The position numbers were made by a program, and so were the translations under genes. A DNA stretch of 28,745 bases, taken from the UHGV virus genome UHGV-0139114; one strand, 5' to 3'. Source of the DNA: a virus. Position 1 is the stretch's first letter. Every line of letters begins with the position of its first letter. A model generated the notes under the pieces. It did no database searches, was not told the DNA's origin, and was given only the letters and a program-made list of their open reading frames with translations. This document shows positions 3,510-26,187 of the stretch, in pieces.

Positions 3510-5805
3510 AGCCTCCGGGCGTTTTGTCCCTCCGTCAGCATTTGCTGCAGGCACCGGTAAGGCGTTTACCGGTGCTTATGCATGGAACGCGCCACGCGAG
3601 GCTGTCGGGCGCGAAAGACCCCTTACACGTGACGAGATGCGTCAGGTGCAAGGTGTTTTATCCACGATTAACCGCCTGCCTTACTTTTTGCGCTCGCTGT
3701 TTACTTCACGCTATGACTACATCCGGCGCAATAAAAGCCCGGTGCACGGGTTTTATTTCCTCACATCCACTTTTCAGCGTCGTTTATGGCCGCGCATTGA
3801 GCGTGTGAATCAGCGTCATGAAATGAACGCCGACGCGTCGTTGCTGTTTCTGGCAGAGCGCGACCAGTATGCGCGCCTGCCGGGGATGAATGACAAGGAG
3901 CTGAAAAAGTTTGCCGCCCGTATCTCATCACAGCTTTTCATGATGTATGAGGAACTCTGCGATGCCTGGGTGGATGCGCATGGCGAGAAAGAATCGCTGT
4001 TTACGGATGAGGCGCAGGCTCACCTCTATGGTCATGTTGCTGGCGCTGCACGTGCTTTCAATATTTCCCCGCTCTACTGGAAAAAATACCGTAAAGGACA
4101 GATGACCACGAGGCAGGCATATTCTGCCATTGCCCGTCTGTTTAACGATGAGTGGTGGACTCATCAGCTTAAAGGCCAGCGTATGCGCTGGCATGAGGCG
4201 TTACTGATTGCTGTCGGGGAGGTGAATAAAGACCGTTCTCCTTATGCCAGTAAACATGCCATTCGTGATGTGCGTGCACGCCGCCAGGCAAATCTGGAAT
4301 TTCTTAAATCGTGTGACCTTGAAAACAGGGAAACCGGCGAGCGCATCGACCTTATCAGTAAGGTGATGGGCAGTATTTCTAATCCTGAAATTCGCCGGAT
4401 GGAGCTGATGAACACCATTGCCGGTATTGAGCGTTACGCCGCCGCAGAGGGGGATGTGGGGATGTTTATCACGCTGACCACGCCGTCAAAGTATCACCCG
4501 ACACGTCAGGTCGGAAAAGGCGAAAGTAAAACCGTCCAGCTTAATCACGGCTGGAATGATGAGGCATTTAATCCAAAGGATGCGCAGCGTTATCTCTGCC
4601 GTATCTGGAGCCTGATGCGCACGGCATTCAAGGATAATGATTTACAGGTCTACGGTTTGCGTGTCGTCGAGCCACACCACGACGGAACGCCGCACTGGCA
4701 TATGATGCTTTTTTGTAATCCACGCCAGCGTAACCAGATTATCGAAATCATGCGTCGCTATGCGCTCAAAGAGGATGGTGACGAAAGAGGAGCCGCGCGA
4801 AACCGTTTTCAGGCAAAGCACCTTAACCGGGGCGGTGCTGCGGGATATATCGCGAAATACATTTCAAAAAATATCGACGGCTATGCACTGGATGGTCAGC
4901 TCGATAACGATACCGGTAAGCCGCTTAAAGATACTGCCGCGGCTGTTACCGCATGGGCGTCAACGTGGCGCATCCCGCAATTTAAAACGGTTGGCCTGCC
5001 GACAATGGGGGCTTACCGTGAACTACGCAAATTGCCTCGCGGCGTCAGTATTGCTGATGAGTTTGACGAACGCGTCGAGGCTGCTCGCGCTGCCGCAGAC
5101 AGTGGTGATTTTGCGTTGTATATCAGCGCGCAGGGTGGGGCAAATGTCCCGCGCGATTGTCAGACTGTCAGGGTTGCCCGTAGCCCGTCGGATGACGTCA
5201 ACGAGTACGAGGAAGAAGTCGAGAGAGTGGTCGGCATTTACGCGCCGCATCTCGGCGCGCGTCATATTCATATCACCAGAACCACGGACTGGCGCATTGT
5301 TCCGAAATTTCCGGTCGTTGAGCCTTTGACTTTAAAAAGCGGCATCGCCGCGCCTCGGAGTCCTGTCAATAACTGTGGAAAGCTCACCGGTGGTGATACT
5401 TCGTTACCGGCTCCCACACCTTCTGAGCACGCCGCAGCCCTGCTTAATCTGGTTGATGACGGTGTTATCGAATGGAATGACCCGGAGGTCGTGAGGGCGC
5501 TCAGGGGCGCATTAAAACACGGCCTGAGAACACCAAACCGTCAGCAAAGAAACGGAAGCCCGTTAAAAGCGCATGAAATAGCGCCATCGGCCAGGCTGAC
5601 CCGGTTGGAGCGTATGCAAATTACCCGTATCCGTGTTGACCTTGCTCAGAACGGCATCTGGCCTCAGCGATGGGAACTTGAGGCGCTGGCGCGTGGCGCG
5701 ACCGTAAATTATGACGGGAAAAAATTCACGTATCCGGTCACTGATGAGTGGCCGGGATTCTCAACAGTAATGGAGTGGACATCATGGCAAAAATTCACGA
5801 GGTAA
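3499..5805 (+). CDS. A: Rolling-circle replication initiator endonuclease, P2 gpA-like (start at ATG 3499; track start 3457 is TTG)
   Basis: From the 3499 ATG the protein begins MAVKASGRFVPPSAF, which I recall as the P2 gpA N-terminus; contains HWHMMLF and YIAKYISKNIDGY, typical of rolling-circle initiators with the active-site tyrosines. Confidence 0.9.
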   Translation: MAVKASGRFVPPSAFAAGTGKAFTGAYAWNAPREAVGRERPLTRDEMRQVQGVLSTINRLPYFLRSLFTSRYDYIRRNKSPVHGFYFLTSTFQRRLWPRIERVNQRHEMNADASLLFLAERDQYARLPGMNDKELKKFAARISSQLFMMYEELCDAWVDAHGEKESLFTDEAQAHLYGHVAGAARAFNISPLYWKKYRKGQMTTRQAYSAIARLFNDEWWTHQLKGQRMRWHEALLIAVGEVNKDRSPYASKHAIRDVRARRQANLEFLKSCDLENRETGERIDLISKVMGSISNPEIRRMELMNTIAGIERYAAAEGDVGMFITLTTPSKYHPTRQVGKGESKTVQLNHGWNDEAFNPKDAQRYLCRIWSLMRTAFKDNDLQVYGLRVVEPHHDGTPHWHMMLFCNPRQRNQIIEIMRRYALKEDGDERGAARNRFQAKHLNRGGAAGYIAKYISKNIDGYALDGQLDNDTGKPLKDTAAAVTAWASTWRIPQFKTVGLPTMGAYRELRKLPRGVSIADEFDERVEAARAAADSGDFALYISAQGGANVPRDCQTVRVARSPSDDVNEYEEEVERVVGIYAPHLGARHIHITRTTDWRIVPKFPVVEPLTLKSGIAAPRSPVNNCGKLTGGDTSLPAPTPSEHAAALLNLVDDGVIEWNDPEVVRALRGALKHGLRTPNRQQRNGSPLKAHEIAPSARLTRLERMQITRIRVDLAQNGIWPQRWELEALARGATVNYDGKKFTYPVTDEWPGFSTVMEWTSWQKFTR

Positions 5806-6236
5806 AGCTGCACGCAAAATATTTCGACCTTGTGCTGGAAGGAAAGAAACGTGCAGAGTTTCGGAAAAATGACCGTAATTATGAGCGCGGGGACACGCTG
5901 ATTTTGCATGAATGGGTGCAGGGTGTGTTTACGGGGCGAAAGGTTGAAGCCCGGATAACAGATGTTACTGACCTGTCAGACTGGCTGGAAGATTATGTCT
6001 TGCTAAGTATTGAGCTGCTTAATACAAGCGCATATGAGATTGTGAACTGGAAAGAACTTAGTGAGCGTGGTCTGGTATTCAGAATTAATCATGAAATTAT
6101 GCATCAGCTCGGCCTTGCTGTTATGTATGAACCAGAGACGGGGATGTCTGGCGGGGCAATGGTTACCACGGATGGAGCATGGAACTATTCAGATGAACAG
6201 ATTGAGAGTGCAAAGCAAAACGGGTGGCTTGGATAA
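5784..6236 (+). CDS. DUF3850-like (ASCH/PUA-like fold) protein with a C-terminal extension (150 aa from ATG 5784)
   Basis: N-terminal 60 aa (KIHEVKLHAKYFDLVLEGKKRAEFRKNDRNYERGDTL) look like DUF3850 from memory; track start 5748 is GTG, and ATG 5784 has GGAG 9 nt upstream. Confidence 0.55.
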   Translation: MAKIHEVKLHAKYFDLVLEGKKRAEFRKNDRNYERGDTLILHEWVQGVFTGRKVEARITDVTDLSDWLEDYVLLSIELLNTSAYEIVNWKELSERGLVFRINHEIMHQLGLAVMYEPETGMSGGAMVTTDGAWNYSDEQIESAKQNGWLG

Positions 6237-6442
6237 TGCACGGAATACCAGGCGAGATACCGCAACATAACACTAAAAATATCAAGCTGATGGCTATTGT
6301 TCACCGTCTACAGCAGATTATGGTCAACGAAAATCTGACGCCTGACGAGCTGGTCGGGTGTGCTGAAATAGTCCGGGATAATTACGGGCGGTTTAACTAT
6401 ATCGGTCAGTCCAGAGTTGCGCCACCACCACGCAGACGATAG
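6236..6442 (+). CDS. Small hypothetical protein (68 aa), start overlapping the DUF3850 stop (TAATG)
   Basis: ATG 6236 shares one base with the upstream stop TAA at 6234-6236; no family recognised. Confidence 0.4.
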   Translation: MHGIPGEIPQHNTKNIKLMAIVHRLQQIMVNENLTPDELVGCAEIVRDNYGRFNYIGQSRVAPPPRRR

Positions 6443-6515
6443 AGAACGCCGCCAGTCGTGAAACTTGTTTTCAGGGCTGGCGGGGTTGAACAACGAGCGA
6501 AGTGAGGCGTTAGCA

Positions 6516-7457
6516 TTAAGTTAATTTTAATGAATGGTACTCTATCGAGCTGATTGTAGATGCGATATATTTACGATCATTTACAGAGAGTATTGCCGCT
6601 AGTAGACGACATACCAGAGCCTGCATTTGTAGCAATATATCGCTACCATATTGACAATCATTGATACTAGAGAAACCAAGCGGTTGCCCATTAAAAATGG
6701 CTTCATGAAAATTATCATTGCGTATAACTGAAACATTACATTCATCTGTTGCCCATGACGGGATTTTTACACCGTAATTTTCGCACATCCAATATACTCT
6801 ATTTTGATGAGATGGTTTTTTCTCTTTAATGACTTTATCCCTTTCATCCCATGCTATAGCAAAACAGCAATCAAGAGCCATATAAAGATACTGGAATTTC
6901 TCAAAGGAAAGGTATAGTGGGTTATGTGATAGGAATAGGGAGTGTATCACCGCAGCTATTCTTTTAATGGAGCGATCATCTTTTTGTTTGTCTTTTATAT
7001 AGTTAAGTGCTAGCTCTATTACTTCTTTTTCAGAGCATCCAACGAGAATAAAGTCAGTTAACTTAGTGGGCTTGATAGTGGTTGCATCAAGAAAACCAGC
7101 GTCAGTGGTTGTCAATCTTATACCCTTGAAAAAAGAGAGGCACCACACAACAAAGTTGAGAGTTTCTAACGAGGATGTGTTTTTTAATTTTAGTGTGTGC
7201 GTTTTGGGCATGCCGAATACTCGGTAACTATAAGGCATTGTGCATGTGTCACCATTAAGGTTATATACCTTTCGATTCCCAGGGTATATCCAACCATTAA
7301 CAACGTTTTTATCATTGTTAATACGTTCCACTTTCTCAATAAGACCGGGTAAAGTACGCAAAGAAAATTGTTCAGTCTCAATGTTAACTTCTACTGGATA
7401 GTATCCAAACTCCGAAATAATCTCATTTGGTTGCTGTTCATCAACTTCACCTTGCAT
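6516..7457 (-). CDS. Orphan 313-aa protein with an RNxxxH (HEPN-like) motif; candidate abortive-infection / defence nuclease
   Basis: Long ORF on the opposite strand to the surrounding phage genes in an AT-rich segment; GGAG 7 nt upstream of ATG 7457; motif RNDNFH at residues 246-251 (nt 6705-6722). Not a P2 gene that I recognise. Confidence 0.6.
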   Translation of the reverse strand: MQGEVDEQQPNEIISEFGYYPVEVNIETEQFSLRTLPGLIEKVERINNDKNVVNGWIYPGNRKVYNLNGDTCTMPYSYRVFGMPKTHTLKLKNTSSLETLNFVVWCLSFFKGIRLTTTDAGFLDATTIKPTKLTDFILVGCSEKEVIELALNYIKDKQKDDRSIKRIAAVIHSLFLSHNPLYLSFEKFQYLYMALDCCFAIAWDERDKVIKEKKPSHQNRVYWMCENYGVKIPSWATDECNVSVIRNDNFHEAIFNGQPLGFSSINDCQYGSDILLQMQALVCRLLAAILSVNDRKYIASTISSIEYHSLKLT

Positions 7458-22301: not shown

Positions 22302-22829
22302 ATGCAACACTTAAAAAACATTATTGCGGGAAATCCAAAAACGGTTGAGCAATATAAACTGACAAAGAATTTTGATGTTATCTGGTTATGGTCCGAAGAG
22401 GGAAAAAACTGGTATGAGGAAGTAAGTAATTTTCAGGAAGACACGATAAAGATTGTTTACGACGAGCATAATATTATTGTCGCCATCACCAAAGATGCCT
22501 CCACGCTTAACCCTGAAGGTTTTAGCGTTGTCGAGGTTCCTGATATTACCGCCAACCGACGTGCTGATGACTCAGGTAAATGGATGTTTAAGGATGGTGC
22601 TGTGATTAAGCGGATTTATACGGCAGACGAACAGCTGCAACTGGCAGAATCACAAAAGGCCGCGTTACTTTCCGAAACCGAATCCGTGATTTTGCCGCTG
22701 GAGCGCGCTGTCAGGCTGAATATGGCAACAGATGAGGAGCGCAGTCGACTGGAAGCATGGGAACGCTACAGCGTTCTGGTCAGTCGTGTGGATACTGCAA
22801 ATCCTGAATGGCCGGAAATGCCACAATAA
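22302..22829 (+). CDS. G: Tail fibre assembly chaperone G
   Basis: 175 aa immediately after H. Confidence 0.8.
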
Positions 22830-23019
22830 GTGATATGATCTCTTGTGTGAATTAACATAGCTATAGTACAGAGTAAAACCTAATCGGACAGTCCGCTCTG
22901 TGCCATTACCGGACATACTGAGCAGAAGGCTAAAAGAACGCTTTCAGGACATATAGCAAGGGAGCAGGGATGATAGAATTAACCCAGTATATTTAATGTT
23001 TCAATCATGATAGTTCCTG

Positions 23020-23047
23020 AATTAAAGGGGGGTATCCCCCTTTAATT
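23020..23047. terminator. Bidirectional hairpin terminator between convergent G and the 92-aa gene
   Basis: Perfect 12-bp stem AATTAAAGGGGG / CCCCCTTTAATT with loop GTAT; overlaps the stop codon of the minus-strand gene. Confidence 0.55.
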
Positions 23048-23324
23048 ACTTGTACCACTCAGTCTGAATTTGGTTACTAACTTCATCTGGGAGATTGTAC
23101 CAATAAGCTGAGTTATTGGTTGCGTCTACAACAATAAGCTTATCATCACTATCCATAACCGCCCTCACAATTTTGGCTGCATCCTCGGCAGAGTAACTAC
23201 AGTTAACATACCAGTTCGATTCAGTTGTTAAAGCCCAATTTCCTAAAGATTTAATCGCATTATACACAGCCGCATAATCTTTCGTTTTAATGAGGTCGTA
23301 AGTAATAAATAAATTATTGGCCAT
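23046..23324 (-). CDS. Hypothetical 92-aa protein (cargo)
   Basis: ORF with GGGAG 8 nt upstream of the ATG, in an AT-rich island; no family recognised. Confidence 0.55.
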   Translation of the reverse strand: MANNLFITYDLIKTKDYAAVYNAIKSLGNWALTTESNWYVNCSYSAEDAAKIVRAVMDSDDKLIVVDATNNSAYWYNLPDEVSNQIQTEWYK

Positions 23325-23343
23325 AAATCATCTCCCAAAGGGC

Positions 23344-23370
23344 AAAGAAAAAAGCGCCTAGAAAGGCGCT
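23344..23370 (-). terminator. Rho-independent terminator between the DUF3606 gene and the 92-aa gene
   Basis: Stem AGCGCCT / AGGCGCT (23353-23359, 23364-23370), loop AGAA; on the minus strand it is followed by TTTTTTCTTT. Confidence 0.6.
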
Positions 23371-23376
23371 CATATA

Positions 23377-23595
23377 TTAATGGTCTTTAAGCCATGCCTG
23401 TACTTTCTTAGCCGAATGACCTACAGCCTGTACGGCTTGAACAAGTTTGGCCTCGCTAACTCCAAACTTTTCAGCCCAATCACGTCTTTCGTAATCCTGT
23501 TTGATACTTATTAAATCATTGTCAGGGGTACCGATTTTGGTCTTATCATCAGCCATTTTACTGATTCCTCGTGATACAGGCTTATACCTGCCCAT
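23377..23595 (-). CDS. DUF3606-like small protein (alternative start at ATG 23556 giving 59 aa)
   Basis: Pattern DYERRDWAEKFGVSEAKLVQAVQAVGHS resembles DUF3606 family members as I remember them; both candidate starts have an SD. Confidence 0.55.
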   Translation of the reverse strand: MGRYKPVSRGISKMADDKTKIGTPDNDLISIKQDYERRDWAEKFGVSEAKLVQAVQAVGHSAKKVQAWLKDH

Positions 23596-24043
23596 TAGTT
23601 ATATGGCTCCCGTGCCGCTTCGTAAACGTTCAATAATCAAACAATTGACACTGATCATAAAACCAGTTAAAGGATTTGACTCTACCTTGGATATATGATG
23701 CCACCCCCTTTATATTGTTGTCGGTAACTCACAGGCATTGAACTCATGCTGGTGAGTGAAAGGCCACATAAACGCCCAATATTTAAACTGCCCTCAGCAG
23801 CGTTCGCGGAGCAATATACAGGCTTCGTATTCAATCCTTGCCCTACGAGAAACCCTAGCCGCAACCTCGTTTTCAAGTGTCAGTAAGTTCTTTGTCAGAC
23901 CTCATACAGTTTTAAGCTGGGTGAGGTGCATGGGGGAAGTTGAAGCCTTAACTGTTGAGGTAAATCGAACCATAAGTGTGCAATTTTTCAAGCCCGGCGC
24001 TATTTTAGTCTTGAAAACAATTAGTACGCCCCAAGGACAACTC

Positions 24044-24736
24044 ATGATCGAATTTATCGCAGAGCATATAAACACAGTAAGCACACTTATCTCCGCTTTG
24101 GCTGCATTGCTAACAGCAGTTGCTACATTTTTCTTGTGGAGAGTAACAAGGCTATTAGCAGACGAGACAAAAAGGATGGTTGACGCATCAGTTCAACCTC
24201 ACGTCGTTGTGACTCTTGAACCAAATTCTTGGGCTGCTTTTTATTTTGATATCAATATTGCTAATACCGGAAATGCCCCAGCCTATGATATTGAAATCGG
24301 ATTTAATCCCCCACTGGTAAATGCAGAACATAGAAAAAATAAAGGTATACCATTTAGCAAGGTTAGCGTATTGAAAAACGGCCATTCGCTCAACAGCAGT
24401 CTTTGTAAGTATGAACAGATTAAAGATCAAGTTTATACTGTTAGTATTAGTTGGTCTAAACAGCCGGGCTCAACTGAAAGAGAGCGGAATGAGTATTCTT
24501 ATGATATGGCTTCTTTCGAGGGGGTTAGCTACTTAGGTGCAAGGAGTCCAATGACACAGATAGCCGAGCAGGTGAAAAAGATTAGAGAAGACTGGAGGCC
24601 GATTTCCCAGGGAAGCAAAAAAATTAAAACAGACAACTATAATTCAAGTGACAGAGCCGAGGAACAACGAGCACGTGAAGAGTGGTATCAGACCACTGCA
24701 AAGAAATGGGATAAAGAAAAGCAAAAAGATAACTAA
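24044..24736 (+). CDS. Membrane-anchored protein of about 230 aa (cargo); candidate superinfection-exclusion / abortive-infection protein. Alternative start at ATG 23930.
   Basis: AAGGA 6 nt upstream of ATG 24044; predicted single N-terminal transmembrane helix TVSTLISALAALLTAVATFFLW, then a beta-rich domain and a K/E-rich tail; AT-rich; occupies the Z/fun locus. Confidence 0.55.
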   Translation: MIEFIAEHINTVSTLISALAALLTAVATFFLWRVTRLLADETKRMVDASVQPHVVVTLEPNSWAAFYFDINIANTGNAPAYDIEIGFNPPLVNAEHRKNKGIPFSKVSVLKNGHSLNSSLCKYEQIKDQVYTVSISWSKQPGSTERERNEYSYDMASFEGVSYLGARSPMTQIAEQVKKIREDWRPISQGSKKIKTDNYNSSDRAEEQRAREEWYQTTAKKWDKEKQKDN

Positions 24737-24871
24737 TACAATTGACCTGCTCCCCATAAATTAGCATACCACAATCTCAGGTCCGCTCTTCGCTCAAAAC
24801 AGGCTGTCAGATTTGACAGAATTTTGGTTACGTAATTTATCAGTTGGAAAATGAGTGAGTACAAATCAGGA

Positions 24872-24900
24872 CAGGCGGGCGAATAGCCTGCCTTTTCTTT
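24872..24900 (+). terminator. Possible weak terminator after the cargo gene, before the FI promoter region
   Basis: Short stem CAGGC / GCCTG with a 9-nt loop followed by CCTTTTCTTT. Confidence 0.3.
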
Positions 24901-24996
24901 ATCTGTTGTTTCATCCACTGACCAGCCAGGTCAAATAGCGTCTCATGCACTACCCAACAGAAAATAGTTGCACCCATTAACCACGGAGTTAAACGG

Positions 24997-26187
24997 ATGA
25001 GTGACTATCATCATGGCGTGCAGGTGCTGGAGATTAACGACGGCACCCGCGTCATTTCCACTGTATCCACGGCCATTGTCGGCATGGTCTGCACGGCCAG
25101 CGATGCGGATGCGGAAACCTTCCCCCTCAATAAACCGGTGCTGATTACCAATGTGCAGAGCGCAATTGCAAAGGCCGGTAAAAAAGGCACGCTGGCGGCA
25201 TCGTTGCAGGCCATCGCCGACCAGTCAAAACCGGTCACCGTTGTCGTGCGTGTGGAAGACGGCACCGGCGACGACGAGGAAACGAAACTCGCGCAGACCG
25301 TTTCCAATATCATCGGCACCACCGACGAAAATGGTCAGTACACCGGACTGAAAGCCCTGCTGGCGGCGGAGTCGGTAACCGGTGTTAAACCGCGTATTCT
25401 CGGTGTGCCGGGACTGGACACCAAAGAGGTGGCTGTTGCACTGGCATCAGTCTGTCAGAAGCTGCGCGCTTTCGGGTATATCAGCGCATGGGACTGTAAA
25501 ACCATTTCCGAGGTGAAAGCCTACCGTCAGAATTTCAGCCAGCGTGAGCTGATGGTCATCTGGCCGGATTTCCTCGCATGGGATACGGTCAGCAGTACCA
25601 CCGCCACCGCGTATGCCACCGCCCGTGCGCTGGGTCTGCGCGCTAAAATCGACCAGGAGCAGGGCTGGCATAAAACGCTGTCCAATGTCGGGGTGAACGG
25701 TGTTACCGGCATCAGCGCATCCGTCTTCTGGGATTTGCAGGAGTCCGGCACCGATGCTGACCTGCTTAACGAGTCAGGCGTCACTACGCTGATTCGCCGC
25801 GACGGTTTCCGCTTCTGGGGTAACCGTACCTGCTCTGATGACCCGCTGTTCCTCTTTGAAAACTACACCCGCACCGCGCAGGTACTGGCTGACACGATGG
25901 CTGAGGCGCACATGTGGGCGGTGGACAAGCCCATCACCGCAACGCTGATTCGCGACATCGTTGACGGCATCAATGCCAAATTCCGTGAGCTGAAAACAAA
26001 CGGCTATATCGTGGATGCGACCTGCTGGTTCAGCGAAGAATCCAACGATGCGGAAACCCTCAAGGCCGGAAAACTGTATATCGACTACGACTATACACCG
26101 GTGCCTCCTCTTGAAAACCTGACCCTGCGCCAGCGTATTACCGATAAATACCTGGCAAATCTGGTCACCTCGGTTAACAGCAATTAA
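24997..26187 (+). CDS. FI: Tail sheath protein FI
   Basis: 396 aa, begins MSDYHHGVQVLEINDGTRVIS; position before the tube gene. Confidence 0.9.
   Translation: MSDYHHGVQVLEINDGTRVISTVSTAIVGMVCTASDADAETFPLNKPVLITNVQSAIAKAGKKGTLAASLQAIADQSKPVTVVVRVEDGTGDDEETKLAQTVSNIIGTTDENGQYTGLKALLAAESVTGVKPRILGVPGLDTKEVAVALASVCQKLRAFGYISAWDCKTISEVKAYRQNFSQRELMVIWPDFLAWDTVSSTTATAYATARALGLRAKIDQEQGWHKTLSNVGVNGVTGISASVFWDLQESGTDADLLNESGVTTLIRRDGFRFWGNRTCSDDPLFLFENYTRTAQVLADTMAEAHMWAVDKPITATLIRDIVDGINAKFRELKTNGYIVDATCWFSEESNDAETLKAGKLYIDYDYTPVPPLENLTLRQRITDKYLANLVTSVNSN

Follow-up and report, generated by a model that had tools for sequence, protein, structure and literature searches.

In the present study, we analysed a stretch of viral DNA of 28,745 nucleotides (the window), a P2-like (Peduovirus) prophage of E. 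coli, and found that positions 24044-24736 (plus strand, stop codon included) hold a stand-alone accessory ('moron') gene of this prophage, encoding a protein of 230 amino acids. Among the functions that may be proposed, we favour protection of the lysogen, or of the host of a mobile element, against other phages or invading elements, exerted from the cytoplasmic side of the inner membrane; we give this reading a probability of about 0.45. Superinfection exclusion, proposed for this protein in the first-pass annotation, is one plausible reading among several. The frame is under purifying selection (dN/dS 0.25 against P2-EC53 and 0.15 against Kosakonia), and these values together with a large protein family establish it as a genuine gene. 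The gene itself is not new, since it is 'ORF1' of P2-EC53; its family, which is phrog_11802 and by RefSeq label DUF8453, is uncharacterised and missing from PADLOC-DB v2.0.0.

The surroundings of the gene are those of P2 tail genes, and the sequence of strain KC-Dl-1 is 100% identical around it. On its 5' side lie a tail fibre gene of 911 aa and gene G for tail-fibre assembly (22302-22829, Caudo_TAP), and on its 3' side the tail sheath gene FI (24997-26187, Phage_sheath) and the tube gene. G and FI flank a low-GC cargo island of 2.2 kb (22830-24996, without assigned strand), which is the P2 Z/fun hotspot and has a GC content of 38-46% versus 50-60% in the adjoining tail genes. The layout of G, island and FI is identical in P2, Wphi and R18C, with different cargo at the site in other P2-like phages; in both Wphi and a further P2 isolate, an unrelated ORF of 299 aa fills the site. 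The whole island was present in 99 of the 978 E. coli genomes that match a conserved backbone segment, and Pantoea leporis shares the unit 22899-24796. Other P2-like phages share only the last ~215 bp; when the P2 annotation is transferred by offset, the P_F activator site and the start of transcription fall within this segment. The position between G and FI, the atypical GC content and the presence in only some related phages thus identify the gene as Z/fun cargo.

Two further cargo genes lie in the island, both on the minus strand: a DUF3606 gene (23377-23556, 59 aa from the RefSeq start) and an uncharacterised gene of 92 aa (23046-23324, phrog_1090). They travel with the 230-aa gene only in the near-identical island of Pantoea leporis and are probably independent cargo. 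For the DUF3606 gene, the start at ATG 23556 is probably to be preferred to that of the 72-aa ORF (23377-23595), and it agrees with RefSeq, phrog_10779 and the Pfam coverage; a terminator-like hairpin stands 3' of this gene on the minus strand (23371-23352).

The start codon had been left ambiguous in the first-pass annotation, as ATG 23930 would add 38 residues before the membrane helix. Both ATGs do lie in one plus-strand frame, open from 23756 to 24736, which gives 96 open codons upstream of ATG 24044 in the window. The ambiguity can now be settled, as comparison of the homologues indicates that ATG 24044 is the start. Most of the 22 aligned homologues start at most a few residues away from it, and the additional N-terminal residues that 5 of the 22 rows possess show no conservation. 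A Shine-Dalgarno-like AAGGA (24033-24037, plus strand) precedes ATG 24044 by 6 nt, and a purine-rich motif of this kind was found at a like distance in all seven related loci examined. The start at ATG 23930 was rejected: in P2-EC53 the equivalent ATG meets TAA after four codons, and in R18C the frame is disrupted by an insertion of 1 nt. With a stop codon or a frameshift in these close relatives, the upstream frame is not conserved as coding sequence. RefSeq calls a 268-aa protein from ATG 23930 in KC-Dl-1 (WP_250145074; window 23930-24736; L002:4101-4907). Since the comparison with P2-EC53, R18C and the distant homologues favours ATG 24044, this model is probably too long and its start wrong.

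The region upstream of the start is a conserved non-coding leader (23817-24043, plus strand) that moves with the gene, with an identity of ~94% in Pantoea leporis and of 88% in Kosakonia from 23916 on. A regulatory RNA in this leader was considered and rejected, as its predicted fold was not significant (z = -0.6) and no Rfam match was obtained. Recombination junctions fall inside the leader (window 23817-23916; L016:9458-9771; L015:2964-3041). In Pantoea leporis, a 312-bp insertion occurs at window position ~23818; in Kosakonia, the segment corresponding to 23827-23904 lies 7 kb from the gene with a resolvase/invertase gene between, and homology to the gene begins from 23916. A sigma-70-like promoter match, TGGATA-17-TATATT (23688-23716, plus strand), has a -10 element which is the minus_10_signal of AJ512682 by coordinate offset. 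Its use is uncertain, because it stands outside the leader common to other taxa. On the 3' side of the gene, a terminator-like GC-rich hairpin followed by a T-run (24873-24893, plus strand) lies within the P2-like conserved backbone, at a place that precedes the P_F activator site when the P2 annotation is transferred by offset.

The same gene has been deposited before. The proviral Z-region of P2-EC53 (GenBank AJ512682) and phage R18C carry the same island between G and FI, with DNA identities of 95.7% and 96.1%, and their products (ORF1, CAD54906, and QDP43518) show 7-8 amino acid differences over the 230-aa ORF; both differ from the window in that the upstream frame equivalent to 23930 is closed. 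The depositors of AJ512682 named ORF1 a 'putative lysogenic conversion protein'. The same record marks left and right 'inverted repeats' around the island (its positions 3-115 and 1983-2073, which are window 22802-22914 and 24782-24872), for which a repeat search with seeds of 7-9 nt gave no matching inverted pair.

At the protein level, residues 1-230 matched positions 1-230 of the phrog_11802 profile, a family of unknown function (E 1.6e-145). RefSeq names a truncated E. coli homologue (74% DNA identity) 'DUF8453 domain-containing protein', and the putative DUF8453 membership of the 230-aa protein rests on this name of a homologue rather than on a direct model scan. Scans of the 230-aa protein with Pfam, NCBIfam and PADLOC gave no significant family, and the matches to TMEM260 and SecE were set aside as noise. 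PADLOC-DB v2.0.0 returned no match for the window protein at E<=1, and only four scattered matches (E 0.004-0.03) for 74 family members, among which Pfam gave sub-threshold Ig-like matches only. Our literature search on P2-EC53, its accessions, DUF8453 and defence proteins with a transmembrane helix and an Ig-like domain found nothing on the 230-aa protein.

The predicted architecture agrees with the three features that had been noticed at first sight. The N-terminal hydrophobic helix, placed earlier at about residues 10-32, was recovered as a single transmembrane segment at residues 12-32 (24077-24139), with a maximum of 2.05 over residues 12-30 in 19-residue Kyte-Doolittle windows. This segment is kept in the family by prediction (a window above 1.6 in 140 of the 181 members) and is continued by a basic juxtamembrane helix at residues 33-49 (24140-24190). 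The AlphaFold2 model (74-sequence alignment, mean pLDDT 83.9) contains a helix at residues 2-49, of which the transmembrane segment is part, seven strands at 54-154 and helices at 169-188 and 201-229. The soluble domain described as rich in beta-type residues accordingly appears in the model as a seven-strand Ig-like (CARDB-like) beta-sandwich (residues 54-154, 24203-24505), and the charged C-terminus forms two helices (residues 169-229, 24548-24730; this and the preceding segments are all on the plus strand). The helix at 169-188 is conserved and amphipathic; that at 201-229 is highly charged and begins with a near-invariant D203-R204. Residues 170-230 contain 25% K/R and 20% D/E, so that the C-terminus is ~45% charged.

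The topology is predicted to be N-out/C-in, with the beta domain and the charged tail in the cytoplasm and a short acidic N-tail outside. We counted charges in 137 members in which the hydrophobic segment is clear and the N-tail short. The mean was 0.29 K/R and 1.3 D/E in the N-tail and 3.03 K/R in the 15 residues after the helix, and 96% of these members had the greater positive charge C-terminal of the helix, which by the positive-inside rule gives this orientation. On this rule, applied over the 137 members, the bulk of the protein, namely the Ig-like domain and the charged helices, probably faces the cytoplasm rather than the periplasm. The soluble part has 0-1 Cys in 89% of members and the family lacks conserved Cys pairs; few cysteines and the charged tail both agree with a cytoplasmic soluble domain. 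CARDB-like Ig domains are usually extracytoplasmic, and this is in tension with the predicted topology.

Searches by fold gave weak resemblances. The sandwich has similarity to CARDB, DUF11 and DUF7507 domains in the Pfam scan of 74 family members, in every case below the gathering threshold. Foldseek against the PDB gave no match at E<=0.001, with a weak resemblance to proteins composed of an N-terminal helix and an Ig-like domain (archaeal pilins, TRAP subunits), and a sequence profile search of the PDB returned coiled-coil noise only. In BFVD, a few uncharacterised phage proteins have an equivalent 'helix plus sandwich' layout. A type IV pilin, prompted by a Foldseek match, was rejected because the protein lacks a conserved Gly cleavage motif, has an acidic N-tail and is predicted to be oriented the opposite way. 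The likeness to KirBac/Kir channels is an analogy of architecture only, as the scores lie within the generic Ig-like range at 10-11% identity and the 230-aa protein has neither pore helix nor selectivity filter, and one transmembrane helix instead of two. The conserved residues show no apparent catalytic motif, from which we infer that a binding role is most likely.

A conserved stripe follows the first helix of the protein. Residues T24/A25, T28, L31, T35, L38/A39, T42 and M45 are 70-96% conserved among sequences that are 24-43% identical to the query. They lie on one helix face with a conservation period of 3.6 residues from T24 to M45, and the stripe runs from the inner half of the transmembrane helix through the juxtamembrane helix. 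Judged from the alignment, a helix face so nearly invariant is more than a plain anchor needs, and it indicates a putative specific helix-helix contact. Such a contact would be compatible with oligomerisation, and equally with partner binding or intramolecular packing.

The family is large and mobile. A word-indexed search found 242 homologues at E<=1e-3. In a profile search at the same threshold there were 1,948 cluster-50 representatives, and 585 of these reached E<=1e-10. Members occur in Enterobacterales, Pseudomonas, Xanthomonadales, Burkholderiales, Sphingomonadales, Caulobacterales and Rhodobacterales, that is, in Alpha-, Beta- and Gammaproteobacteria. Within a mobile element, the gene usually takes the outermost position among the cargo. 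Besides P2-like prophages and viral contigs, the carriers include an ICE with TraG/TraI in Pectobacterium, a Mob_Pre/Prim-Pol element in a marine Erythrobacter, and integrase or resolvase islands in Xanthomonas, Klebsiella and Yokenella. The 150 immediate neighbours comprise mobile-element genes (resolvase, integrase, DUF932, ParB, capsid), at some loci defence-type genes (GajB-like helicases, a type IIG restriction enzyme, IetA, MzaA), and many ordinary housekeeping genes; one Sphingomonadaceae copy stands between ribBA and rodA without nearby mobile-element genes. AbiJ-NTD4 is a further neighbour of the defence type. The context differs even between loci of Sphingomonadales. No partner gene was conserved across 49 loci of the three classes, and the gene therefore appears to act alone, as stand-alone cargo.

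The anti-phage role is the best-supported reading by virtue of the hotspot, the stand-alone and portable nature of the gene and the occasional defence-gene neighbours. The Z/fun locus has been described as a second defence-enriched hotspot of P2, with three validated systems (Vassallo et al., PMC9519451), and it is listed as a hotspot in two later surveys, with mixed content (bioRxiv 10.1101/2024.10.15.618418, PMC13586616), the former also describing cargo that is not for defence. The proposal of superinfection exclusion thus stands as far as prophage cargo at a Fun(Z)/defence hotspot is concerned, and it loses ground in that no kin was found among defence or exclusion proteins and the soluble part is predicted to lie inside the cell. 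The same lack of homology, the mixed purpose of the hotspot, the housekeeping neighbours, a copy that has lost its transmembrane helix and the tension between a CARDB-like domain and C-in topology speak against the anti-phage reading in general. On the predicted topology, we favour action at the cytoplasmic membrane face over a block of injection in the periplasm. In such a mechanism, the product would be a bitopic inner-membrane protein with its acidic N-tail outside, one transmembrane helix, and the Ig-like sandwich and charged helices in the cytoplasm. At the membrane, the Ig-like domain would bind a ligand from the phage or the host, and through the stripe of the transmembrane and juxtamembrane helix the protein may associate with itself or dock onto a membrane partner that is conserved. 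As an outcome, the completion of genome entry could be disturbed, or infection could trigger permeabilisation of the membrane (abortive infection). A bolder form of this reading, which we regard as rather improbable as it stands, would make DUF8453 a widespread and unrecognised single-gene anti-phage family, portable across Proteobacteria, in which an Ig-like sensor at the inner membrane face is coupled to a Thr/Leu stripe that oligomerises into a lesion or plugs the entry route.

Several other readings have to be weighed against protection at the cytoplasmic face. Possible, if doubtful, is a factor for lysogenic conversion or element maintenance without a defence role, such as a membrane-tethered cytoplasmic adaptor that would modulate a conserved inner-membrane protein of the host, for instance in transport, envelope stress or division, or some other benefit of carriage. 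The label given to ORF1 in AJ512682 says as much, a near-invariant transmembrane/juxtamembrane face in three proteobacterial classes would suit a conserved host partner, some copies do lie amid housekeeping genes, and the hotspot is of mixed purpose; yet no host gene or operon is conserved alongside, the context varies even within Sphingomonadales, and the P2 locus is enriched in defence genes. An N-in/C-out exclusion protein whose periplasmic domain stops DNA injection by other phages, for which HK97 gp15 and T4 Imm/Sp are the classical examples, is unlikely. It would account for the single N-terminal helix of a moron at the fun(Z) locus, for Ig domains of the CARDB/DUF11 type, which are typically extracytoplasmic, and for the weak fold likeness to pilins and TRAP subunits. 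It fits poorly with a beta domain and a charged tail that are predicted to be cytoplasmic: an R/K cluster stands just past the helix, for 96% of members the positive-inside rule gives the opposite orientation, ~45% of the last 60 residues are charged, conserved Cys pairs are missing and no similarity to known Sie proteins was seen. We give as little credence to orphan immunity against a membrane-targeting bacteriocin or T6SS effector, or to entry exclusion against redundant conjugation. An inner-membrane protein carried on ICEs and islands would suit either role, and the Pectobacterium copy has TraI/TraG genes beside it and an Rhs/PAAR toxin cluster at a distance of ~3 kb, whereas across the family no toxin or conjugation gene is consistently adjacent and the gene is likewise found in P2 phages and in small mobilisable elements without genes of either kind. 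That the ORF is non-functional, a decaying remnant in the window prophage, is scarcely credible: E. coli does contain many truncated and frameshifted copies, but the window copy is full length with 97% protein identity to a cluster of 328 sequences, its dN/dS is well under 1, and the Shine-Dalgarno motif and leader are conserved.

Comparison with known systems places the protein apart from each of them. P2 Fun(Z) occupies the same locus between G and FI; it is non-essential and annotated for lysogenic conversion with the remark 'cloned gene blocks growth of T5'. It differs in its 527 aa, its opposite strand and the lack of a Pfam domain, and it is unrelated to the 230-aa protein (BLASTP E = 1.7), which also has no similarity to Wphi orf44-type cargo. 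Exclusion proteins of the HK97 gp15 and lactococcal Sie2009 type are small and moron-encoded, have one N-terminal membrane helix, are expressed from the prophage and act at the cytoplasmic membrane. The 230-aa protein resembles them as a prophage moron with a single predicted N-terminal membrane helix. It is unlike them in its predicted cytoplasmic soluble domain, composed of an Ig-like domain and charged helices, and no sequence kinship was detected in any library searched. With the transmembrane effectors of CBASS, TIR and retron systems and with RexB, the proposed mechanism would share the idea of a cytoplasmic trigger, helix oligomerisation and membrane collapse. Transmembrane proteins of defence systems are believed to be suicide effectors (Rousset et al., PMC9122126). 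The effectors of the CBASS, TIR and retron type need a separate sensor or signal partner, whereas the DUF8453 family has one transmembrane helix and no conserved partner. No homology to abortive-infection transmembrane effectors was found, the lone PADLOC match to a '2TM effector' coming from one of the 74 members at E = 0.008.

If the anti-phage reading is correct, a function would be gained for ~1,900 cluster-50 representatives in three proteobacterial classes that are invisible to PADLOC-DB v2.0.0 (2023). The system would be unusually small, one protein with a membrane anchor and a binding domain facing the cytoplasm, and would offer a tractable model for the coupling of recognition to the membrane. 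If it is not correct, the case would be a caution against assigning function by hotspot position alone. Either way, the current RefSeq start is probably wrong, and the predicted topology of the family argues against the default label of 'periplasmic injection blocker'. Uncharacterised cargo at the Z/fun locus is to be expected; it is the size of the family, its self-sufficiency and the conserved membrane helix that make this candidate worthwhile.

A form of the gene lacking the transmembrane segment is common in E. coli. It matches nucleotides 114-622 of the query at ~74% DNA identity (for example in strain Seattle 1946, NZ_CP149500; L066:5020-5592) and occurs in about 460 E. coli genomes, being ~4 times commoner than the full-length P2 copy (104 genomes). 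Its 5' end has been replaced beside IS30 and transposase fragments, it lies in an island close to fecDE and faces an AbiJ-NTD4 gene in convergent orientation, and it bears the RefSeq name DUF8453. From its persistence in so many genomes, either the loss of the anchor is tolerated or the copy is merely a remnant.

In four enterobacterial loci, a conserved gene of 108 aa, whose product starts MKDGLYSVFFKSN, lies convergent and directly 3' of the homologue. It is on the minus strand in Biostraticola (L017:10739-11077), Pectobacterium versatile (L018:10731-11057), Ca. Pantoea varia (L019:10729-11118) and Klebsiella michiganensis (L011:8724-9050). This neighbour, which is missing from the window and has no Pfam match, presumably resembles GrlR.

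The second cargo hotspot of P2, between replication gene A and portal gene Q, corresponds to window 5748-7457. It holds a minus-strand ORF of 313 aa (6516-7457) without Pfam or PADLOC match and an ORF with a DUF3850/ASCH domain (5748-6236), both of which are uncharacterised cargo. Finally, a perfect 12-bp palindromic hairpin, AATTAAAGGGGG/CCCCCTTTAATT, is located at 23020-23047, between G and the 92-aa gene. It could be a bidirectional terminator, and its placement relative to G recalls the P2-annotated 'terminator for V operon'.
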